Virus record (IMG/VR): IMGVR_UViG_3300037876_000116
Span: 156,520 to 185,507 of that record
Length of the DNA stretch: 28,988 nucleotides
Strand: one strand, 5' to 3'
From: a virus
Below are positions 843 through 21,144 of this stretch, in pieces (position 1 is the stretch's first letter; every line of letters starts with the position of its first letter). A program made the position numbers and the translations under genes. A model generated the notes under the pieces. That model saw only the letters and a program-made list of their open reading frames with translations. It did not search any database and had not been told where the DNA came from.

Positions 843-1596
843 TGGTTCAAGTCATAAAACTGGAATTAAGAATGAAGAACGAATTGCTGGAATTTTAAAA
901 ACAAATCCAAAACCTCTTCTCGGAGACATCACTTTACCTTATAAAGTGGTCCTTAAAGGAGGAACAAAATTTAAAGAAGATATTGTAATTGAAAGCGATA
1001 CCCATTCAATTCCGATATCAATTAAACTAAAAAAGGATTTAACGAAGGGCTCTTTTGATTATGTTAACACCACAACTCCCGTAGCTAAATACGACTGCTT
1101 TAAGCCAATTAAAGATGTCGTCGAAAAGTTCAAGAGTTCAGGTTTAGGTAAAGAGGTAGCAAGGTCGGCTCTCAATAGAGCAGCTTACACTATCCTCAAA
1201 GACATGAACTCCGCCGTCCTAAAAGAAATCTTGCTTGAGCATGTTGACGATAAAAATAAAAAAATGCTTTTCATTGTGACTAATCAAGCAGATAGGCAGA
1301 TTTACGCATATGAGTACAAAGAAACAGACCTGCACGATGCTATTAACAATTGCACGCCTTTTTTGGAGTTTACAAGAGCAGGAGAAACATCTTCAGCTAA
1401 GATTGTTTTTGAAAATAAAAAAGGTGAAATGCTGAATTTAGGGCTGCGCCTGAGAGTCGTCACAAACAATGGAGTTGGAAAACTAGTGAGCCCGAAAGGC
1501 AACTCGTCTCCGGTGGTAAAGATCCAGCAAGACAGAACAGATAAAGTTATTGAGAGGCTGAAAGACCGAGGGATAGTAAGACAAATGACATATTAA
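829..1596 (+). CDS. Putative type II restriction endonuclease (PD-(D/E)xK-like)
   Basis: Overlaps the MTase stop. Contains E..(KGG)..KED...ISIK motif of PD-(D/E)xK type; basic 255 aa protein. Confidence 0.55.
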   Translation: MYQIDGSSHKTGIKNEERIAGILKTNPKPLLGDITLPYKVVLKGGTKFKEDIVIESDTHSIPISIKLKKDLTKGSFDYVNTTTPVAKYDCFKPIKDVVEKFKSSGLGKEVARSALNRAAYTILKDMNSAVLKEILLEHVDDKNKKMLFIVTNQADRQIYAYEYKETDLHDAINNCTPFLEFTRAGETSSAKIVFENKKGEMLNLGLRLRVVTNNGVGKLVSPKGNSSPVVKIQQDRTDKVIERLKDRGIVRQMTY

Positions 1597-12998: not shown

Positions 12999-13203
12999 TC
13001 TTGTTCAAGACATCCACTCTATCGTCACCGGCATTGTCATCGACGAAGCCGATCGGGTTCACTGGCGCGAAGAAGGAGAAGCAACTTGCCAAAAGAAACT
13101 TCACTTTTGTGTTAAATGGTTGTGGGCAGATGGCGAGAAGATCGTGACTAAGAATAGCTGGAGAACAAAAAACGAATTGATTCTTTTATCTCAAAGCCCT
13201 TGA
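12985..13203 (+). CDS. MKVGDLV-family small protein
   Basis: MKVGDLVQD..TGIVID..CVKW. Confidence 0.8.
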   Translation: MKVGDLVQDIHSIVTGIVIDEADRVHWREEGEATCQKKLHFCVKWLWADGEKIVTKNSWRTKNELILLSQSP

Positions 13204-13227
13204 AAACCAGAAATCGGTTCCTATAGT
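13200..13227 (+). promoter_or_regulatory. Repeated phage promoter copy 5
   Basis: cccTTGAAA-accagaaatcggttcc-TATAGT. Confidence 0.8.
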
Positions 13228-13250
13228 TAAGTCGTACCAAGGAGAAGCTC

Positions 13251-13502
13251 ATGTATTGCCGAATTTGTGGAACCGACCAAAAAGTTAAGTATTACCGAAG
13301 CAAAGGGATGAGCATGTGCAAAGAATGCAGCGCAGAGACACCCAGAAAGGCATCTTACAACGGCTTTAACAAACGATACTGGTTTGAGCACTCAACCGTA
13401 CCTGATCGCATTAAACGAGAGTTCTACAGTGATTACAAGGCATCCAAACATACCGTTCAAGAGTACATCGAAGCAACTTCATCTTGGATTTTTAACGATT
13501 AA
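13251..13502 (+). CDS. Small zinc-ribbon protein
   Basis: CRIC...CKEC; AAGGAG SD. Confidence 0.75.
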   Translation: MYCRICGTDQKVKYYRSKGMSMCKECSAETPRKASYNGFNKRYWFEHSTVPDRIKREFYSDYKASKHTVQEYIEATSSWIFND

Positions 13503-13505
13503 GCC

Positions 13506-13533
13506 TTGAAACGTGGGAAACGGTTCCTATACT
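13506..13533 (+). promoter_or_regulatory. Repeated phage promoter copy 6
   Basis: ccTTGAAA-cgtgggaaacggttcc-TATACT. Confidence 0.8.
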
Positions 13534-13559
13534 TAAGAGGAACTACCAAGGAGAACTAG

Positions 13560-13934
13560 ATGTTTAGACAAAGCGCAAAGAAAACACTCACTACATCGTG
13601 CCAATGCACAATCTTGAATGTTAGTGCTAACGCACTGACAAAGCATCTAGGCGAGCCAAAGTTTGATGACTCGGAACTTGGCATTGACCAAAACGATAAC
13701 CTTACATCAATGCAGTGGGTATTTGAAGACGACGCAGAAAACATCGTAACCATTTATGATTGGCGGTCGTCTGCTGCTTTTCAAAAAGATAAGCGTGTTA
13801 CTTGGAGCATCGGAGCTTCAAAACAATCTGAAGCAATCCGCTTCCGCAACTGGATTAATGGTAAACTCCACCCGCTAGCTAAAACTCATCCTATTAACTT
13901 TGATTCTTGGAACGACTGCCCTGGAGGCTTCTAA
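13560..13934 (+). CDS. Hypothetical phage protein (LGEP..W..TIYDW..WSIG motif)
   Basis: AAGGAG SD after promoter. Confidence 0.75.
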   Translation: MFRQSAKKTLTTSCQCTILNVSANALTKHLGEPKFDDSELGIDQNDNLTSMQWVFEDDAENIVTIYDWRSSAAFQKDKRVTWSIGASKQSEAIRFRNWINGKLHPLAKTHPINFDSWNDCPGGF

Positions 13935-13935
13935 A

Positions 13936-14139
13936 ATGACCATAACTCTATCAGAACAGCAGCTTAAAACGCTTTTACTAGCAGCAGAGGAGGCACAGGT
14001 CGTGCGAGAACACGAACTCGCCAAAATGCGAGAAAACCCTGACTATGAACGACACGAGATTACACACTTTACATCGAAGATAAGGCGAACTGACGACGCT
14101 ATTCTTGAAGCCGAGAAAAAACTTATCTTTCCTTCTTAA
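13936..14139 (+). CDS. Hypothetical coiled-coil protein (start 13936)
   Basis: GGAGG SD; MTITLSEQQLK. Confidence 0.7.
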   Translation: MTITLSEQQLKTLLLAAEEAQVVREHELAKMRENPDYERHEITHFTSKIRRTDDAILEAEKKLIFPS

Positions 14140-14162
14140 ACTCTTGTCTTCTTTTACCTCTC

Positions 14163-14200
14163 AACCCCTGACGGTCTTTGACTTGATGGGGTTTTCTTTT
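14163..14200 (+). terminator. Putative intrinsic terminator
   Basis: AACCCC...GGGGTT stem followed by TTTCTTTT. Confidence 0.55.
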
Positions 14201-14217
14201 TGGCTTGTAGTTACTAC

Positions 14218-14409
14218 ATGCACCAAGATGAAGATGTAAGACCGGGAGACCTAGTTAAATGTTACAACTGGCAGTATTACGGTGAGATGGCTATCGTTCT
14301 TAGAGTTTGCGAAGACGCCCTACTGATCTACATCTTTGAAGACAAAACAAAGAAAAAGCTACACAAAAGCCTTTTAAGCATGTTCAAACGCTTCCCCCGT
14401 GATAGTTAA
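14218..14409 (+). CDS. MKVGDLV-family small protein
   Basis: MHQDEDVRPGDLVKC..GEMAIVLRV. Confidence 0.7.
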   Translation: MHQDEDVRPGDLVKCYNWQYYGEMAIVLRVCEDALLIYIFEDKTKKKLHKSLLSMFKRFPRDS

Positions 14410-14430
14410 AAAGAGAGGGAACAATGAAAA

Positions 14431-14637
14431 GTGAAGGTAGGCGACCTAGTAAGAGGGAAAAAGAATGTTGATGGCTTTATTGCTTGGACTTCAAACGAGC
14501 ATGCTTTAATCGTCAAGATTGAAACCACCTCTTACGGCATCGAAGACGTCACTTTAAGGTTCCCCGAAGGCGAAATTGTAGTAATGAGCAAGCGCACGAT
14601 TATAGAGATCTTCGAGCTTGTAAGCGAAGCACCTTAA
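14431..14637 (+). CDS. MKVGDLV-family small protein
   Basis: MKVGDLVRG..ALIVKI..FELVSEAP. Confidence 0.8.
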   Translation: MKVGDLVRGKKNVDGFIAWTSNEHALIVKIETTSYGIEDVTLRFPEGEIVVMSKRTIIEIFELVSEAP

Positions 14638-14655
14638 AAAAGTTTATTTTACCCC

Positions 14656-14683
14656 TTGAAAAGCCTAAGTCCGTTCTTATATT
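14656..14683 (+). promoter_or_regulatory. Repeated phage promoter copy 7
   Basis: taccccTTGAAA-agcctaagtccgttct-TATATT. Confidence 0.8.
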
Positions 14684-14708
14684 TGACAAGTAGCAAGGAA
14701 AGATCAAA

Positions 14709-14882
14709 ATGAGCATCGGAACTTTAGTCAAAATTGTTGATGACCAAGACGGCATTCAAGGCTTGATTGCTTTAGTTATAGACAAAGTTCCTAACTCTGA
14801 TGAAGTTGTAGTGGAATTGGTCACTGATAACAGCTTATGGATTTACTTTCCCAACCAACTGGAGGAACTCAACAATGCTTAA
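14709..14882 (+). CDS. MKVGDLV-family small protein (57 aa, not in ORF track)
   Basis: MSIGTLVKIVDD..GLIALVID..LEELNNA; AAGGA SD. Confidence 0.7.
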   Translation: MSIGTLVKIVDDQDGIQGLIALVIDKVPNSDEVVVELVTDNSLWIYFPNQLEELNNA

Positions 14883-15369
14883 CAAAAGTTTACATGCCGA
14901 ACTTGTTGGACTTAAAGAATGGAAAAGCAACTCTCGCATTTACGGTGAAGCAGTCGAAAGGTGGCTATGTCGGAACTTCTCGTGTCCGTGTTGCAAAACC
15001 GGCAAGCTGCGACAGCTAGAGATTAACTCTCCTTTCATAGATCTAAAGTGCAATGAGTGCGGAGAAAGCTACCAAGTAAAAGCAAGCAGTTCCACTCTCG
15101 TAGCTAGAAGCGGTAAATTAAAAAATTTATCCGGCGCTGCTTACTCTAAAAGCCTTGAGGGCTTGGAAGAAAGAAACAAATGTAATTTTCTGCTTGTTCA
15201 ATACTGTCGAGGAGCCGCTGAGATAAAAGAAGCCTTTCTCTTGAGAAAAGAGGACATATCATCCGAGCACCTTATCAAAAGAAAGCCTCTTGGTCCAAAC
15301 GCAAGGAAAGCGGGACTGGTGCTTAGTAGATGGGAATTTGGTGACATCAATCGAGAAATTATTTTATAG
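14875..15369 (+). CDS. DpnI-like (Dam-replacing family) endonuclease catalytic domain, lacking winged helix
   Basis: CPCC..NSPFIDLKCNECGESYQVK..GAAY..NFLLVQY..KRKPLGPNARKAG parallels DpnI N-domain motifs. Confidence 0.8.
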   Translation: MLNKSLHAELVGLKEWKSNSRIYGEAVERWLCRNFSCPCCKTGKLRQLEINSPFIDLKCNECGESYQVKASSSTLVARSGKLKNLSGAAYSKSLEGLEERNKCNFLLVQYCRGAAEIKEAFLLRKEDISSEHLIKRKPLGPNARKAGLVLSRWEFGDINREIIL

Positions 15370-15386
15370 AAAAATCACTTTACCCC

Positions 15387-15414
15387 TTGAAAACCCTAAA
15401 TCCGTTCTTATATT
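15387..15414 (+). promoter_or_regulatory. Repeated phage promoter copy 8
   Basis: taccccTTGAAA-accctaaatccgttct-TATATT. Confidence 0.85.
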
Positions 15415-15442
15415 TAAGATGTAACAAAGAAAGGACAAGAAA

Positions 15443-15922
15443 ATGCTTCACGAAAAAGCTGTAAAGAAAGTCGAGAAAGCACTCGGAATGAAAGTTGAGC
15501 TTATCGGCAACTGCCGCTACGGCGTCACCTACGAGGGATATGTGCTCTCTTGGATGGTGTCGCGCCAATGGAAGGTAGATGCAAACGACAAGATGGTCAA
15601 AGACGGACCACTCGAAGCGTCTAACTGGCACGCTCGGCGCGTCGATGACCATTCGGATTCGATGGTTGATTACTTCGCTGGAAGTTACTTTGATAATGTT
15701 ACGCAGCTTATTCACTGGGTTAAGCCACCCGAGCCAAAGTTCAATGTTGGTGACCTTGTGAAAGGCAAAGATAACAAGCGAGCCAACCGTCAAGGTTACG
15801 CTAACAAGCTCGGCATCGTTACTCGCAACGGTCGATACATGGGTGTTGAGTGGGTTGATAGCGGTCTTAAAAATTACGCTTCGTGGGCATCCTACCCCCA
15901 AAACGACTTTGTGAGGGCATAG
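15443..15922 (+). CDS. Two-domain protein: DSMVDYFAG-motif domain fused to C-terminal KOW/SH3-like domain
   Basis: C-terminal FNVGDLVKG..KLGIV..GVEW. Confidence 0.75.
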   Translation: MLHEKAVKKVEKALGMKVELIGNCRYGVTYEGYVLSWMVSRQWKVDANDKMVKDGPLEASNWHARRVDDHSDSMVDYFAGSYFDNVTQLIHWVKPPEPKFNVGDLVKGKDNKRANRQGYANKLGIVTRNGRYMGVEWVDSGLKNYASWASYPQNDFVRA

Positions 15923-16119
15923 TGAAACCCGGCGACATGTTCAGATACATCGATGGTTCCACTGGCTTGATAGTATCGCATCCATTTTTGTGGCGGATTG
16001 ACTTAACCAAAAAGAAAGAAGAAGCACTAGAATGCGTTCGGGTGGTTTGGTCAGGCACTGACCGTCCGGTGGTTATGTCGCTTAAAGCCTTTGAAAATCA
16101 GACTGCTAAAATAATCTAA
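15922..16119 (+). CDS. MKVGDLV-family small protein (GTG start 15922)
   Basis: MKPGDMFRY..STGLIV..VRVVW. Confidence 0.7.
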   Translation: MKPGDMFRYIDGSTGLIVSHPFLWRIDLTKKKEEALECVRVVWSGTDRPVVMSLKAFENQTAKII

Positions 16120-16137
16120 TAAAAAACACTTTACCCC

Positions 16138-16165
16138 TTGAAACTCGAAAATCCGTTCCTATATT
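16138..16165 (+). promoter_or_regulatory. Repeated phage promoter copy 9
   Basis: taccccTTGAAA-ctcgaaaatccgttcc-TATATT. Confidence 0.85.
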
Positions 16166-16193
16166 TAAGATGTAACAAAGAAAGGACAACAAA

Positions 16194-16394
16194 ATGAAAA
16201 AGTTTCTTGTACCAGTCACCTTTATGATGAGCACTTACGTCGAGGTAGAGGCAGACGACATCGAAGAAGCGATTCACGAAGCCTGCGGTGTTGATCTTAG
16301 CATCGATTCGGCTGACTCCTGGGAATACGTCGGTGATAGCTGGGAAGTAGATGAAGATGGAATTGAAGAAGTACCAACCAAAGGAGATGCATAA
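16194..16394 (+). CDS. DpnD/PcfM-like small acidic protein
   Basis: F.V.VT...YVEVEADDIEEAI.EA pattern. Confidence 0.6.
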   Translation: MKKFLVPVTFMMSTYVEVEADDIEEAIHEACGVDLSIDSADSWEYVGDSWEVDEDGIEEVPTKGDA

Positions 16395-16396
16395 TT

Positions 16397-16597
16397 ATGC
16401 AACAAATAGCACAAATAACTGAAATCATTGAAGAAATCCTCAATAACAACGACGTCGAAAACGCTGAAGATATCGCGATGGACTGCGCGGTAACATTAGT
16501 CAAAGCAAGTCTCGACCAACTGGCTACGGTCCTTGGCGCAGAACTAGATGAAAACAATCTAGGTCAAACGACCCTTAACCTGGGAGCACTCTACTAA
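16397..16597 (+). CDS. Small acidic hypothetical protein
   Basis: AAGGAG SD. Confidence 0.65.
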   Translation: MQQIAQITEIIEEILNNNDVENAEDIAMDCAVTLVKASLDQLATVLGAELDENNLGQTTLNLGALY

Positions 16598-16677
16598 TGA
16601 TGATCACACTTTACATTCTAGGCGCTTGTGGCGTCTTGTCTACACTTCTTCTCTATTGTTTCAAAGATCTGACGTAG
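16597..16677 (+). CDS. 26-aa membrane peptide
   Basis: TAATG overlap; MMITLYILGACGVLSTLLLYCFKDLT. Confidence 0.5.
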   Translation: MMITLYILGACGVLSTLLLYCFKDLT

Positions 16678-16689
16678 AAAGGACAAAAA

Positions 16690-16929
16690 ATGCAATCCGG
16701 CGACCGAGTAAAGCTCACAGGAAAGACAAAACACGGCAAAAACCGTGTGCGTGAGCAGGGAGCCGAGTGGATTGTCGTCAAACTCCGGTCGGGTGTTTTA
16801 TTCTCCGAGGACAAGAAAAAAGAATTCGCCTTGTTGAGAAAAGAAGACAACCCCGGCGAACATTGGCGATGGGTTGCCCTAAAAGAAGATAAAAACTTTT
16901 CAGTTGAGGTGATAGATGAAAGTCGGTGA
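16690..16929 (+). CDS. MKVGDLV-like protein
   Basis: MQSGDRVKLTGKTKHGKNRV...VEVIDESR. Confidence 0.75.
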   Translation: MQSGDRVKLTGKTKHGKNRVREQGAEWIVVKLRSGVLFSEDKKKEFALLRKEDNPGEHWRWVALKEDKNFSVEVIDESR

Positions 16930-17074
16930 TTTGGTAAAGTGGACCGCATTGCGAGGCGAAGACTTGATAGGGCTTATCGTTGGATTTGATAAGGAGAACG
17001 ACCCAATGGTCAGGGACTGCAAGTCTGGTGTAATCATAGCCCACTGGCGAGATAGCTTGGAGGTGTTGAGTTGA
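16916..17074 (+). CDS. MKVGDLV-family small protein (52 aa, not in ORF track)
   Basis: MKVGDLVKW..IGLIVG..LEVLS. Confidence 0.75.
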   Translation: MKVGDLVKWTALRGEDLIGLIVGFDKENDPMVRDCKSGVIIAHWRDSLEVLS

Positions 17075-17100
17075 AAGTCGGTGATTTGGTAAATAAACCC

Positions 17101-17128
17101 TTGAAAGCTCAAAATCCGTTCTTATATT
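17101..17128 (+). promoter_or_regulatory. Repeated phage promoter copy 10
   Basis: cccTTGAAA-gctcaaaatccgttct-TATATT. Confidence 0.85.
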
Positions 17129-17160
17129 TAAGACATAAGAGACAAACAAAAGGAAAAAAC

Positions 17161-17397
17161 ATGACTGATACGACTTACAACGGATGGACTAACCGAGAAA
17201 CCTGGAACGTGAACCTTTGGTTATCCAATAGCCAGCCGCGTTACGAGGCGATGCTTCGTATGTTCCCAAAAAAGAACGCAGGCGAAGAAAGCGCCCAGGC
17301 TATGTGTCGCGGCTTTTGGGGTGAAAAAACCCCGGACAACTGCCTTTTAGATAATGTTAACTGGAAAGAGGTCGCGGAAGCGATAAACGAGCAATAA
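17161..17397 (+). CDS. Phage protein with YNGWTNRETW motif (start 17161)
   Basis: AAGGA SD after promoter; YNGWTN.ETW.V.LW..N and VNW.EVA motifs. Confidence 0.75.
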   Translation: MTDTTYNGWTNRETWNVNLWLSNSQPRYEAMLRMFPKKNAGEESAQAMCRGFWGEKTPDNCLLDNVNWKEVAEAINEQ

Positions 17398-17398
17398 A

Positions 17399-17689
17399 AT
17401 GAGGCAATTCACAATAAAAGAAAACTTAGCCTCGACCCAAGAAGCGGATCAACCTAGAAAGAGGGAGTTTATCCCCTCTACAAGCAAGTCAAAGCTAAAC
17501 TCAGGGTATCAGGTGGCTAAGATCGACAAAGACACTCAGGAGGTCAATACTTTGACAGAGCCGGGATATCTAAGAGCTACGAAGAACTCCAAGCGACGCT
17601 TAGAATCAATAGGCATCGAAAACTTGTTCTTGATTCATAGCGAATGGTTCAAGAAGGCGAGAAAGAAAAAAGTTACTTTTACCCCCTAA
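17399..17689 (+). CDS. Hypothetical basic protein
   Basis: ORF directly follows previous stop. Confidence 0.55.
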   Translation: MRQFTIKENLASTQEADQPRKREFIPSTSKSKLNSGYQVAKIDKDTQEVNTLTEPGYLRATKNSKRRLESIGIENLFLIHSEWFKKARKKKVTFTP

Positions 17690-17694
17690 CGAGT

Positions 17695-17838
17695 AAAAAA
17701 GTGTTTCGGTGGTGCCTACTGGCTTAATAGGCAACCTTTCAAGTTCTTAGCCTGCCCGGTAGCTCCGGGGAGTAAGGAAAACGATGAAAGCTAGACCATC
17801 GACTCGGAATGGCTAACCGAGCGCCGGAACACTTTTTT
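17695..17838 (+). ncRNA. Candidate multi-stem ncRNA
   Basis: 17-bp closing stem with two G-U pairs and three internal arms. Confidence 0.65.
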
Positions 17839-17858
17839 ATTTTTTTTCACTTTGCCCC

Positions 17859-17886
17859 TTGAAAAGTCAAAATCCGTTCTTATATT
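17859..17886 (+). promoter_or_regulatory. Repeated phage promoter copy 11
   Basis: gccccTTGAAA-agtcaaaatccgttct-TATATT. Confidence 0.85.
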
Positions 17887-17923
17887 TAAGGGGTAAGAGA
17901 CAAACAAACAAAAGGACACTCTC

Positions 17924-18115
17924 ATGACACGCAAAGACTTCCAACTAATCGCAGACGTTGTTGCTTCCACACTTGCCACGGTAAAGCCCGAAGCACGTCA
18001 ATGCCTCGCGCTTGACTTTGCGGTTGCCCTTGCGGAGACGAACCCCCGCTTTAACTCTAATCTTTTCGTCAAGGCTTGCCTTGTGAATGAATTGAGCGAC
18101 AAAGCCGCCTATTAA
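17924..18115 (+). CDS. Small phage protein (MTRKDFQLIA...NPRFN..LF..AC motif)
   Basis: AAGGA SD after promoter; recognisable small phage-protein motif. Confidence 0.75.
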   Translation: MTRKDFQLIADVVASTLATVKPEARQCLALDFAVALAETNPRFNSNLFVKACLVNELSDKAAY

Positions 18116-18154
18116 GAAAAAGGTCGAAGGACATAAAAAAAATAACTTTAACCC

Positions 18155-18182
18155 TTGAAAAGTCGAAAACGGTTCTTATATT
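18155..18182 (+). promoter_or_regulatory. Repeated phage promoter copy 12
   Basis: cccTTGAAA-agtcgaaaacggttct-TATATT. Confidence 0.85.
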
Positions 18183-18215
18183 TAAGGTATAAGAAACAAG
18201 GTAAAGGAAAAGAAT

Positions 18216-18404
18216 ATGTTTGGTTCAGTAGAAGAGATCGAAGTAGCAGGAAGAGAAGAAGTCATTCAGTACCTGGAAGGTTGGGGATGCGCTTGTTATG
18301 ATAGTGAAAGCACAAGCCTTCTCAAAGCCGCAGCAATAGAAACCTTCGAGACGGAAGAAATGGAGCACGAAGACTTTGATGCTTCTCACATGGAGGATTA
18401 CTAA
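18216..18404 (+). CDS. Small acidic hypothetical protein
   Basis: AAGGA SD after promoter. Confidence 0.7.
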   Translation: MFGSVEEIEVAGREEVIQYLEGWGCACYDSESTSLLKAAAIETFETEEMEHEDFDASHMEDY

Positions 18405-18406
18405 TC

Positions 18407-18550
18407 ATGGGTATTGGCGATGTTCTATTTATTGCTTTCGTTCCCACAACCTTTGCTCTCTTCTTGTCTTGGTTGATAATGAGTGATAGCAAAGTCGAGG
18501 ACATAAAAAAAATGTTTCGTTTTATTACTTTCAAGAAGAGGAGCAACTAA
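18407..18550 (+). CDS. Small membrane protein (47 aa)
   Basis: GGAGG SD; MGIGDVLFIAFVPTTFALFLSWLIM. Confidence 0.6.
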   Translation: MGIGDVLFIAFVPTTFALFLSWLIMSDSKVEDIKKMFRFITFKKRSN

Positions 18551-18551
18551 G

Positions 18552-18683
18552 ATGATGACTGACAAACAATACAGAGATCACGTAAGACGCATAGAGAACG
18601 CTAAAAAGAAAGGCGATCAAAAGAAAGCTAGCGAATTGAGTCAAGAGCTATGGGATACCCTAAGCAAAGAAGAGACTTACTAA
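18552..18683 (+). CDS. Small hypothetical protein (43 aa)
   Basis: GAGGAG SD; MMTDKQYRDHVRRIENAKK. Confidence 0.6.
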   Translation: MMTDKQYRDHVRRIENAKKKGDQKKASELSQELWDTLSKEETY

Positions 18684-18716
18684 ACAGGAAGCCGGGAGGA
18701 CACCGAGCCTCTGGAT

Positions 18717-18745
18717 TAAGCCCTTGATAGGATAAAACCTTGATA
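18717..18745 (-). promoter_or_regulatory. Two tandem IHF consensus sites
   Basis: Minus strand TATCAAGGGCTTA (18717-18729) and TATCAAGGTTTTA (18733-18745), both exact WATCAANNNNTTR. Confidence 0.55.
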
Positions 18746-18779
18746 GGGCTCTTTTAAATAATCGCAGGACATAAAAAAA

Positions 18780-18992
18780 ATGATTGAAGAAACATGCCCA
18801 AGAGAAGAGCTTTTCAATAGCTTGGTTAAGAAGATGAGTAAAGGAAAAACAAACAAAGAACGCAGGCTCTACCGTCGCGTCATTAAAGAAGCAAAAAAAG
18901 ATGGTTCTTATCCTGCTTTAGTCAATGAAGTGTTAGACGAACTTGTGGAAAAAGGACACGCTTGTCCATCCTTTCACTCTACAGCAACCTAA
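18780..18992 (+). CDS. Hypothetical basic protein
   Basis: AGGA SD. Confidence 0.6.
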   Translation: MIEETCPREELFNSLVKKMSKGKTNKERRLYRRVIKEAKKDGSYPALVNEVLDELVEKGHACPSFHSTAT

Positions 18993-19112
18993 TTCCCTTT
19001 TTCTACCCAGGAAGCCCTAAAAGACCTTTAAAGATAAGGTTAAATAAGGGCTCTAGGTAGTGTATGTATAAGAGCCTGTAAAAAGCCTTGTATATCCAAT
19101 ATGATAGAAAGG

Positions 19113-19158
19113 GTGGTAGAATATAGGGGAAAAGTGGTAGAAGGTGGGAATAGGTGGG
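19113..19158 (+). repeat. GTGG-N6 direct repeats (MraZ-box-like)
   Basis: GTGG at 19113, 19134, 19144, 19154 (10-bp period). Confidence 0.55.
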
Positions 19159-19192
19159 TGTATCTGGTCACCACGTGACTTACATTCAACCC

Positions 19193-19220
19193 TTGAATAC
19201 CATTATTTCGTGTTTATAAT
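19193..19220 (+). promoter_or_regulatory. Repeated phage promoter copy 13 (variant)
   Basis: cccTTGAAT-N16-TATAAT. Confidence 0.6.
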
Positions 19221-19321
19221 ATATATGTCGGGGATATAACCCCCTCAACCCCTAAATACCCTCTTTTTAAAAGCGCAATGATTACGCGCACTTAGTTTAA
19301 CTTTCTCTAGGAGCCAATAGA

Positions 19322-19516
19322 ATGTTCATCGTAGGTTTCATGGTCGGCTTTGTAACAGCCATTGCCGGTGCTCATGGTATCGCGCTATGGGTTGAAAGCA
19401 TCCAAGCCAACACCGCCCGCAACGCCGAACGCTTAGAACAATTCCAAACCTTCAAAGCTCAAGCGCCCCCCGCGCCCACCTTCGATGAAAGCGTACCGGC
19501 GACTTGGCAGGACTAA
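19322..19516 (+). CDS. Small membrane-anchored protein
   Basis: AGGAG SD; N-terminal hydrophobic helix. Confidence 0.7.
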   Translation: MFIVGFMVGFVTAIAGAHGIALWVESIQANTARNAERLEQFQTFKAQAPPAPTFDESVPATWQD

Positions 19517-19518
19517 GG

Positions 19519-19558
19519 TGTATACAATTTGAGACATGGTTGTGTCAATCTATACACA
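19519..19558. promoter_or_regulatory. Paired bEBP enhancer-like sites TGT-N12-ACA
   Basis: TGTATACAATTTGAGACA and TGTGTCAATCTATACACA, inverted relative to each other (13/18 match), centres 22 bp apart. Confidence 0.6.
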
Positions 19559-19612
19559 CTCCCCTTCAAGGACTCCTTGAGTTAACGCGCTATTGAGAGC
19601 ATAAATACAGTG

Positions 19613-19625
19613 CAAGCCTTTGATA
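19613..19625 (-). promoter_or_regulatory. IHF site between enhancer and sigma54 promoter
   Basis: TATCAAAGGCTTG = exact WATCAANNNNTTR. Confidence 0.65.
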
Positions 19626-19664
19626 TTATTAAGGAAACAAAATAAATGCCCTAAATGAACCAGT

Positions 19665-19680
19665 TGGCACGGAACCTGCA
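19665..19680 (+). promoter_or_regulatory. Sigma54 -24/-12 promoter
   Basis: TGGCACG-GAAC-CTGCA versus consensus TGGCACG-N4-TTGCW; correct spacing, one mismatch. Confidence 0.75.
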
Positions 19681-19757
19681 ATATATATAGGTATGAATTC
19701 GCACTTACTCAACACTTCAGAAACTCAAAAAAAAGTAAAATAAAACGCTTCTACCCC

Positions 19758-19785
19758 TTGACCGAGCCGAAACGGTTCTTATATT
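19758..19785 (+). promoter_or_regulatory. Repeated phage promoter copy 14, upstream of sigma gene
   Basis: taccccTTGACC-gagccgaaacggttct-TATATT, flanked by a perfect 11-bp inverted repeat (19748-19758/19788-19798). Confidence 0.8.
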
Positions 19786-19821
19786 ATAGGGGTAGAAGAA
19801 AACACTTTCAAAGGACCTAAC

Positions 19822-20610
19822 ATGCTTTTCATGATCGCAACTCAAAACAAGCCAGCCGCCCCTAACGCTCAAATCGCAGCCGTTCAGCGGTTTCAGGCTT
19901 CGGACTTCCAAGACCGCAACGCCCTTCAATTCCTTATCGAGTCCAATATTCGCTCGGTCATTAAGATTGCCAAGGGCTATGTTCGTCGAGGGTGTGAACT
20001 CGAAGACCTTATCGCAGAGGGCACCATTGGTTTAATGGAAGCCGCGCAACGTTGGGAGCCGGAGCACGGTGCTAACTTCAATACTTACGCTTGCAATTGG
20101 GTTCGCGCTCGTGTTCAAGAGTTCGTACAAAAGAATAGTAGCGCGTTCAAGGTTGGCGGTCGTACCGTTCGTACCCTCTTTCAATCGCTAGCCCGTGTCC
20201 TTCGTAAGCATGGAAAGGATGCCGACGTGGAGCTAATCGCCAGCGAGTTAAACCTTAAGGTGGAGCAGGTTAGCGAGGCTCTCCAATACATGAATCGCAA
20301 CGGGCGCAGCCTCGATGCTCCGGTTGGTGTAGAAGGTCGCCCTTTCTACGAGGTAACCGCAGACAATAGCCTTAACCCCGAACAAGCCTTGATGGCTAAG
20401 GAAGAGCAACAGGAAAGCGATGATCTCTTTGTTAGCTTCGGTGCTACCTTGAGCGCACGCGACCGGGTGATCTACTTTGAGCGCATGCTATCGGATGAGC
20501 CTCGCGGACTCGTTGACCTTGGCGACCAGTTTGGTATAAGCGCGGAGCGTGTGCGACAACTTGAGCAGCGAATCTTTAGTAACTTGCAGACAGCAGCACG
20601 TAAGCGCTAA
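19822..20610 (+). CDS. rpoH: RNA polymerase sigma factor, RpoH/sigma32-like
   Basis: SNIRSVIKIA, EDLIAEGTIGLMEAA, FNTYACNWVRA, RpoH-box-like KVGGRTVRTLFQSL, SLDAPV, region 4 LGDQFGISAERVRQLE. Confidence 0.85.
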   Translation: MLFMIATQNKPAAPNAQIAAVQRFQASDFQDRNALQFLIESNIRSVIKIAKGYVRRGCELEDLIAEGTIGLMEAAQRWEPEHGANFNTYACNWVRARVQEFVQKNSSAFKVGGRTVRTLFQSLARVLRKHGKDADVELIASELNLKVEQVSEALQYMNRNGRSLDAPVGVEGRPFYEVTADNSLNPEQALMAKEEQQESDDLFVSFGATLSARDRVIYFERMLSDEPRGLVDLGDQFGISAERVRQLEQRIFSNLQTAARKR

Positions 20611-20695
20611 GGGGGCACACCCCCCCCTCCCCCGGTGGATACCGGGAAGTATCCCTAGTGGATATGGGGGGTGGCGCGGGCAGATACACTCGCGC
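20611..20695. other. GC-rich nested inverted-repeat structure
   Basis: CACCCCCC/GGGGGGTG enclosing CCCGGT/ACCGGG and TATCC/GGATA hairpins, followed by GCGCG/CGCGC. Confidence 0.55.
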
Positions 20696-20726
20696 TCTCA
20701 ACGGAAAAGCCAAATTTGGAGATTTG

Positions 20727-20761
20727 AAGCCCTTTGCTATTTACAGTAGCGAGGGCTTTTT
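20727..20761 (+). terminator. Intrinsic terminator after sigma gene
   Basis: AAGCCCTTTGCTA/TAGCGAGGGCTT stem plus T-run. Confidence 0.65.
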
Positions 20762-20811
20762 AGTATAATCAAGAGGTCAAAAAAACCCGCCAAAAAAAAT
20801 GGAGGCTTAGG

Positions 20812-21144
20812 ATGAGTAAAGAAGATGAATGGGCTGAAGGGGATTACCTGGATTGGCTTGAGGACTCAGAAGAGGAAGAAGCAGAAAAGCAAAAGAGAAT
20901 GAATGAAAGAAACCAGGAAGCTAAAAGAATCAAATGGAAAATCATTGATAGGGATTACGAGTACGAAGTCATTGTTGGTGAAAAGAAGCTAGGAAGCGTG
21001 GTTAGATCTAACGGGAAATGGGTGGTTCAGCCCGAGTTCATATGGAACGAGGATTCCTTTAGCCATAGAGACCTAGCTAAGTCGAGCTATGAGGACTTCA
21101 GAGAAAGCGGTCAGGCGTTGGTAGACTTGTGGTGTTTGTCTTAG
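20812..21144 (+). CDS. Hypothetical acidic protein
   Basis: GGAGG SD. Confidence 0.75.
   Translation: MSKEDEWAEGDYLDWLEDSEEEEAEKQKRMNERNQEAKRIKWKIIDRDYEYEVIVGEKKLGSVVRSNGKWVVQPEFIWNEDSFSHRDLAKSSYEDFRESGQALVDLWCLS

Follow-up and report, generated by a model that had tools for sequence, protein, structure and literature searches.

A conserved, optional sigma54 cassette precedes the gene for an RpoH-like sigma factor in a T4-like phage. We consider it likely that, through this cassette, an activator of the host, probably a myxobacterium, raises the level of the sigma factor, which would then drive the early and replication genes. The promoter is of a known type in an unexpected place, a phage sigma gene, and a candidate host phylum and a candidate regulon can be named for it.

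The DNA analysed (the window, 28,988 nucleotides) comprises the final 29 kb of a virus record of 185,507 bases, which is rated 100% complete and has no end repeats. Among the genes of the record are ones for T4-like proteins of the head, the tail and replication. The sequencing runs that hold this stretch are marine or seawater metagenomes, and no RNA run is among those listed for it. Contigs from 4/4 other sequencing runs span the cassette in part or as a whole, and one of them covers 19166-19716 with zero differences. Therefore, the cassette is not an assembly artefact.

The phage sigma factor is RpoH-like

The only PF04542 gene of the phage record is the sigma gene (19822..20610, plus strand), which encodes a sigma70-family factor of 262 aa with sigma70 regions 2, 3 and 4 and no match to region 1.2. 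Its best NCBIfam model is RpoH; the scores are well under the curated cut-offs (159 bits versus 323 for TIGR02392 and 155 versus 241 for NF005143). The RpoH box between regions 2.4 and 3 can be aligned yet is diverged, and the LF..L core alone is retained. Judged by these profiles, the factor is RpoH-like and is not a member of the RpoH family. A sigma tree, with its rows selected for likeness, groups the 12 phage rows into a single clade (100/100) on a long branch beside two Myxococcota RpoH-like rows (97/86); this tree names no donor. We also considered that the promoter had been captured with the gene from a host, and rejected this idea: a strict -24/-12 element was found in 0/37 host RpoH-like loci (up to 900 bp upstream) and a relaxed one in 1/37. 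Among INPHARED phages, only distant sigma factors under the 60% identity class were found (best rows about 35%), and single-protein and close-alignment scans of the viral_contigs collection gave no relatives.

Elements of the cassette and its surroundings

As judged by alignment, the cassette (19517..19726, plus strand, about 210 bp) lies between the stop codon of a small ORF and an A-run before a promoter of the CTTGA class. At its upstream end are two inverted TGT-N12-ACA sites, which start 22 bp apart. The distal enhancer-like site (19519-19536, centre 138 bp from the GG of the -24 element) is degenerate and differs at 5/12 positions from the host consensus described below. The proximal one (19541-19558, centre 116 bp from GG) is a palindrome, is off TGCGWA-N6-TWCGCA at 3/12 positions and is retained in all close carriers of the cassette. 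An exact IHF consensus follows on the minus strand (19613-19625, centre 47 bp from GG), beside an A-tract near 19635-19646. The -24/-12 element TGGCACG-N4-CTGCA (19665-19680, plus strand; GG at 19666-67 and GC at 19678-79) predicts a transcription start at about 19691. It deviates from the sigma54 consensus TGGCACG-N4-TTGC(T/A) (PMC9765219) at a single position, -15, where C replaces T. Between the cassette and the sigma gene stands the CTTGA-class promoter TTGACC-N16-TATATT (plus strand, -35 at 19758 and -10 ending at 19785). An earlier reading of the letters alone (the sequence-only reading) had named the inverted pair, the IHF site, the correctly spaced -24/-12 element and this promoter, and all four were found where it had placed them.

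Single elements occur at chance level. In the 185.5-kb genome, TGGCAC-N6-TGC was seen once (1.1 expected), the IHF consensus 20 times (19.4 expected) and TGT-N12-ACA 94 times (107 expected); inside the window, seven IHF consensus sites were seen versus 2.3 expected. The evidence for a sigma54 promoter is the order, spacing and conservation of the elements.

The surroundings of the cassette hold further features. An 11-bp inverted repeat (19748-19758 with 19788-19798) encloses the CTTGA promoter and could fold in a long transcript (z -2.5; a hairpin of equal stability arose in 2/200 shuffles). On the minus strand, an 11-of-12 sigma70 match (19811-19783) is directed into the cassette. The small ORF (19322..19516, plus strand, 64 aa, hydrophobic N-terminus) is found upstream of the sigma gene throughout the close clade and has no Pfam or PHROG match. 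Transcripts from its own CTTGAA-class promoter (19190..19220, plus strand) may extend into the sigma gene. In the leader of this ORF, a palindromic box GCGYAAT-G-ATTACGC (19268-19293) occurs in most close loci, carriers and non-carriers of the cassette alike; its conserved stretch 19272-19290 gives no match to the enhancer matrix described below. Farther upstream, two tandem exact IHF consensus sites lie 16 bp apart at 18717-18745, and several relatives have them at the same place. The whole stretch 13195-19785 is a variable region like the PeSL regions of T4-type phages, with ten near-identical promoters each heading one or a few small ORFs; a DpnI-family gene is at 14875-15369. Past the sigma gene, a terminator-like hairpin (20731..20769, plus strand) overlaps the sigma70-type promoter of the next gene. 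A structured RNA within 19100-20850 was considered and rejected, since the Rfam search gave no match above gathering there (one chance hit, E 0.17).

The promoter is conserved in distant phages

A DNA-pattern search gave three viral contigs in which a -24/-12 element precedes a sigma gene with about 35% identity to that of the window. An alignment including those three led to 18 loci; 11 had a long match, and seven short, weak hits were left out. TTGGCAC-N6-TGC was present upstream of the sigma gene in 11/11 distant viral loci that matched the sigma family in full or at the N-terminus. Among the independent loci, found by protein alone and excluding the three rows of the query itself, the element was present in 8/8. 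The identity of the sigma family across these phage clades is 35-43%.

We then aligned 16 promoters, namely the window, four close ones and the 11 distant ones. TTGGCAC-N5-NTGC is present in 16/16. An IHF-like site (0-2 mismatches, same strand) has its centre 47 bp from GG in 10/16 and 26 bp from GG, two turns nearer, in 4/16; the consensus is exact in 4/16. For the enhancer, these phage promoters themselves served to train a palindromic 18-mer matrix, with spacing kept outside the training. The matrix detected 29 sites in 12/16 promoters, as compared with 0.7 in shuffles. The site centres lie near 51, 75, 104-107, 116, 126, 138, 149 and 168 bp from GG and follow a period of 10.5 bp (R 0.82, or 0.79 for a thinned set; 0/20000 uniform draws), a significance that is overstated because tandem sites and related phages are not independent. 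In the window, the proximal site scores 15.2 and the distal one 5.5, which is under the family threshold. A 135-bp promoter core is conserved above the first 500 sigma coding bases in 6/6 pairs (for example, 81% versus 54% and 90% versus 70%). In three related phage genomes (G001, G002 and G003), the exact enhancer consensus occurs solely before the sigma gene, with two sites each. The -24/-12 element in 11/11 distant loci, the fixed IHF distances and the helical phasing thus bear out the proposal that the enhancer, IHF and sigma54 promoter are genuine.

Two unrelated viral contigs (L049 and L045) carry sigma54 promoters with IHF-like sites before non-sigma genes. Upstream of the -24/-12 match (1501-1525, minus strand), they have three and two NtrC-like palindromes, respectively, with 1-3 mismatches to the NtrC consensus, as compared with about 0 in shuffles. 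These are possibly nitrogen-sensing phage promoters.

Promoter classes and the role of the sigma factor

The CTTGA-class promoter was described in the sequence-only reading as a repeated one, and 13 high-scoring copies, of the form CTTGAA-N10-..GTTCT-TATATT, are indeed present in the genome (10 in the small-ORF region of the window), as compared with 0 in each of two shuffles. At a lower threshold, the CTTGAA class has 61 hits versus 25-30 in shuffles. Its intergenic plus-strand copies precede small early ORFs and the genes for SbcCD, SSB, DnaB, dUTPase, groEL, a PurA-like protein and a methylase. A second motif, ACTATTTA, occurs 22 times on the plus strand and 0 times on the minus strand, ahead of mostly structural genes. 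A gp55-like late sigma factor is encoded at genome position 34750-35451 (phrog_234, E 1.2e-6), and we infer that ACTATTTA is the late promoter class read by this factor. With a separate late sigma factor and a separate late promoter class, the term master sigma, which had been applied to the RpoH-like factor, does not hold.

Which factor reads the CTTGAA class was approached from the host side. The matrix of this class scored above the best of 20 shuffles at 14/26 groES loci and 16/28 clpB loci of the hosts (four and two loci, respectively, were skipped), and at 1/30 rpsB and 0/28 rnpB loci. This pattern fits an RpoH-type class that the phage RpoH-like factor could read, its own promoter included. 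The groES and clpB matches also fit strong housekeeping promoters under CIRCE control; CIRCE-like repeats were found at 9/26 groES loci. The exact pattern CTTG..GGTKCYTA is not enriched in hosts (12 matches versus about 22 in the control), and a CTTGA-class search in phages without the sigma factor gave 17 single matches in viral_contigs, which is about chance by estimate.

These results leave some room for another explanation, which we regard as possible and rather doubtful. It includes the same sigma54 part as our preferred one: the sigma54 promoter is real, the CTTGA promoters are read by the host housekeeping sigma factor and the phage factor redirects host RpoH-type genes, so that there is neither feedback nor a phage regulon. 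The CIRCE-type reading of groES and clpB would suit it. However, the class is unlike the DNA upstream of host rpsB and rnpB, and no other phage factor was identified for the approximately 25 intergenic promoters. Under the preferred explanation, the phage sigma factor would read the CTTGAA-N16-TATATT/TATAAT class, its own promoter included, and late genes would pass to the separate gp55-like factor; both are weaker parts of it. Positive feedback of the sigma factor on its own CTTGA promoter, as had been proposed, is plausible, with the chances about evenly divided. A CTTGA-class promoter lies between the cassette and the gene in 11/17 carriers. It is missing in 6/17, and therefore the feedback cannot be general.

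A probable host activator and an apparently undescribed Myxococcota regulon

No PF00158 activator was found in the phage's own genome (G000) or in seven related records (G001-G003 and G763-G766), and no IHF/HU gene was found in G000. Because none of these eight phage records encodes an activator, it likely comes from the host, as the sequence-only reading had supposed; the Myxococcota regulon described below, which the family enhancer matches, points the same way. The phage carries several host-like genes, namely those for a KamA-family radical SAM enzyme (G000:C1, 154038-155345), a PEP carboxykinase (134248-135702) and GroEL (142199-143770) (loci L083 and L082). Among the best 80 cellular matches of the KamA-like protein, 48 are titled as myxobacterial taxa, with a top identity of 60-62% in the 7/64 collection parts scanned. 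The host of the phage is probably myxobacterial.

From the phage family we derived the pattern TGCGWA-N6-TWCGCA plus a -24/-12 element and searched hosts for it. A first composite pattern occurred in 27/201 genomes of the Sorangium-centred phylum (31 matches versus six in the control). A refined pattern occurred in 86/401 Myxococcota genomes, with eight control matches, and in two control phyla it was found in 2/151 (phylum of an Acidobacteriota record) and 2/201 (phylum of a Burkholderiales-titled record) genomes. The family enhancer therefore matches an apparently undescribed regulon that, as judged against these two phyla, is Myxococcota-specific. The sites of the distant phages match the host consensus exactly. 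The window-type half-site (C at position 6) was found in 8/301 host genomes, with three control matches and none with TGTG. In a search of candidate hosts, which the sequence-only reading had offered as a check, the family form of the enhancer motif was thus found, and the form in the window proved rare.

Downstream of 16/30 of the first host loci is a gene for one conserved protein of about 62 aa, which is the main target of this sigma54 regulon (Myxococcota loci L211-L235, L236-L265 and L293-L298). The gene occurs in 68/201 genomes, and the protein falls into about 1300 database clusters; it has no worthwhile Pfam, NCBIfam or solved-structure match. We found 16 loci of the gene by protein only, four of which were dropped for want of an anchor. 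In 9/12 scorable loci, a -24/-12 element and a strong site were present, as compared with an enhancer in 9/600 control windows; the remaining 3/12 show a CGGCA variant, which is outside the score. Among 27 more regulon loci, the targets include four CDP-alcohol phosphatidyltransferases and one diacylglycerol-kinase-family gene (another was in the first set), a hint that the regulon may serve membrane-lipid functions.

In 3/6 larger host regions, Pfam searches placed an FHA-AAA+ activator, together with an activator without an N-terminal domain, 3-5 kb upstream of the gene for the 62-aa protein. One other region has the same flanking genes with the activators unannotated, and 2/6 are without the cluster. 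In two host genomes, an RpoH-like gene is inside the FHA-activator cluster. FHA domains bind phospho-threonine. The FHA-domain protein is a candidate for the activator, on the basis of gene neighbourhood in one host lineage. The small host genome G103 has a consensus site beside its gene for the 62-aa protein; it encodes four activators, and none of the three extracted obviously matches the FHA protein. The phage genome itself holds a perfect host-consensus site at G000:C1:145247-145264 (L082:15247-15264), between a sigma70-like promoter, which it closely follows, and the gene for a PAP2 phosphatase. This site has no -24/-12 element and may be an operator or a hairpin.

The deviation of the window sites from the host consensus raises the question of what binds them. 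One answer, which we judge improbable, is that the -24/-12 element is real and that the protein on the TGTG-type palindromes of the window is a different one, either a paralogue of the activator or a regulator of the CRP family, for instance MrpC. Two 15-mers in the proximal site are one base off the MrpC motif TGTYN8RAC given in the accessible part of PMC4320627, and the symmetric change from C to T at positions 3 and 16 could mark an altered specificity. Moreover, enhancers have evidently been swapped in three distant phages (L062, L065 and L069), which keep the -24/-12 element and have repeated GCA(A/T)-N3-(A/T)TGC(A/G) in place of the family enhancer. A pair of these repeats, 50-160 bp upstream of GG, flanks a CTAAACG...TGCAARAAGT block common to the three. 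On the other side, the MrpC motif holds just seven informative positions, and in the window its best matches carry one mismatch. Furthermore, TGTG and TGCG half-sites adjoin in single promoters (L060, L063 and L068) at the same helical phase. This co-occurrence favours one tolerant activator, for which the window would have weaker sites.

The cassette is optional in close relatives

Close relatives were sought in metagenomes, where 39 loci were found, 33 of them with the gene start. Two loci with fewer than 20 bases upstream, four starting inside the gene and two distant partial hits were dropped, and 31 were judged. The cassette was present in 5/31 (L002, L006, L028, L032 and L033; L028 and L033 are near-identical) besides the window, and absent in 26/31. 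In the alignment it comes or goes as a block of about 210 bp, and the carriers fall at three or four places in the sigma tree. The nearest non-carrier of the window (L037) has a sigma factor that is 95% identical over its 110 residues (N-terminus). Among the carriers, L006 has lost the CTTGA promoter and only the cassette remains, and L028 is missing about one helical turn between the enhancer and the IHF site. Conservation of the upstream elements, which the sequence-only reading had offered as a check, was accordingly seen in the distant loci (-24/-12 in 11/11; among the 16 aligned promoters, IHF-like sites in 14 and enhancers in 12) and not in most of the close ones.

Because most close relatives manage without the cassette, we regard it as an extra input and not as a gate. 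This result disagrees with the proposal that the cassette gates phage development. In its full form, that proposal describes an obligatory, host-state-gated switch on a self-amplifying master sigma factor that starts phage development, and we consider it very unlikely. It can draw on the five loci (L006, L062, L067, L068 and L069) in which the sigma54 promoter is the sole one directly before the sigma gene and may be the main input, and on the resemblance of the CTTGA class, so often placed between the cassette and the gene, to host groES and clpB promoters. However, besides the 26/31 relatives and the gp55-like factor with its distinct late class, two CTTGA-class promoters of the window can reach the sigma gene without the cassette. 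The abundance of cassette-less relatives among the close loci implies that they develop normally. That the cassette is a chance look-alike or a decaying relic without function is scarcely credible: single elements do occur at chance frequency, most close relatives lack the cassette and the distal site is degenerate, but conservation above coding DNA, the fixed IHF distance, the phasing and the 8/8 independent distant loci all stand against it.

Discussion

The preferred explanation, a host-activated booster of the phage sigma factor, would work as follows; its first steps are taken from established sigma54 biology. The host sigma54-RNA polymerase would wait as a closed complex at the -24/-12 element, IHF would introduce a bend near -70 and an activator, bound at its sites 116-138 bp upstream, would open the complex, so that the sigma mRNA starts near 19691. 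The extra sigma factor would likely boost the genes of the early and replication sets, perhaps along with its own. Phages without the cassette would enter this programme through their CTTGA promoters, served by the host sigma factor alone. The cassette would therefore be a conditional booster in the clade of the window, and for phages such as L006, L062 and L067-L069 it may be the chief input.

A phage with a sigma gene behind a sigma54 promoter can listen to host signalling without encoding a sensor, and the present system offers a tangible case in which the sensing of host state by a large phage of the lytic type can be tested. It points to Myxococcota as the host of an abundant uncultured group of marine phages. 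It also exposes an apparently undescribed Myxococcota regulon of the 62-aa protein, CDP-alcohol phosphatidyltransferases and diacylglycerol-kinase-family genes, which can be studied in a laboratory myxobacterium. More tentatively, large lytic T4-like phages of marine myxobacteria might plug their own sigma factor into host activator signalling via swappable enhancer cassettes. Most would tap a phylum-wide regulon likely run by an FHA-domain activator, which would sense phospho-threonine, and some would tap another activator, and feedback would lock the sigma regulon on. If this is true, the phages would read a host kinase pathway to pace infection, and enhancer motifs would be of use as tags for host prediction.

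Sigma54 promoters stay silent unless they are opened by an activator under the control of a signal, and enhancer-dependent ones with IHF are known in the type of nifH/NifA, glnH/NtrC and Pu/XylR. The cassette resembles these bacterial promoters in its -24/-12 element, in the IHF-like site between this element and the enhancer and in paired palindromes 100-170 bp upstream in helical phase. In contrast to them, it is found on a T4-like phage without an activator gene of its own, drives a phage sigma70-family factor and is present block-wise.

Phage sigma cascades are known: gp28 of SPO1 is a middle sigma factor and gp55 of T4 a late one, and transcription of their genes starts from host sigma70/sigmaA promoters. 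The present phage is similar in having an early or middle sigma factor followed by a gp55-like late factor with its own short promoter. To our knowledge, none of the SPO1 and T4 sigma genes has a sigma54 or enhancer input.

In the literature covered, which was largely open-access text, we found no phage sigma gene described as being under a sigma54 enhancer promoter. In the available text of a myxophage survey (10.64898/2026.09.14.751636), the word sigma appears once, in a reference, and that of PMC10141889 gave gapA/pgk locus tags only. The nearest phage case is Pseudomonas phage YuA, for which the part of PMC10914365 available to us, citing Ceyssens 2008, describes one sigma54-like promoter. 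It is likewise a phage promoter assigned to the host sigma54. In contrast to the cassette, the promoter of YuA (58.7 kb, another family) has, according to that part, a target that is no phage sigma gene, and the text there mentions neither an enhancer nor an activator nor an IHF site for it.

On the host side, the Myxococcus xanthus network of enhancer-binding proteins and sigma54 (Nla28, HsfA, MXAN4899 and Nla18) belongs to the phylum inferred for the host and has many activators and sigma54 promoters, FHA-domain activators among them (available parts of PMC9765219, PMC7910581 and PMC4320627). The first two of these sources count 53 activators in M. xanthus and give the Nla28 half-site as CT(C/G)CG(C/G)AG; reference titles in PMC4320627 concern FHA activators and SigB/C/E. 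The Nla28 half-site differs from ours, and in the same parts of the three papers we came across neither the TGCGWA-N6-TWCGCA regulon nor its 62-aa target.

Finally, the PeSL cassettes of T4-type phages consist of a sigma70 promoter plus a terminator, and their repeated strong promoters are possible crossover points, according to the part of PMC2839356 available to us. The present phage shares with them the repeated strong promoters in a variable region and the patchy distribution of modules among close kin. Unlike the PeSLs as described there, the cassette is an activator-dependent sigma54 promoter.
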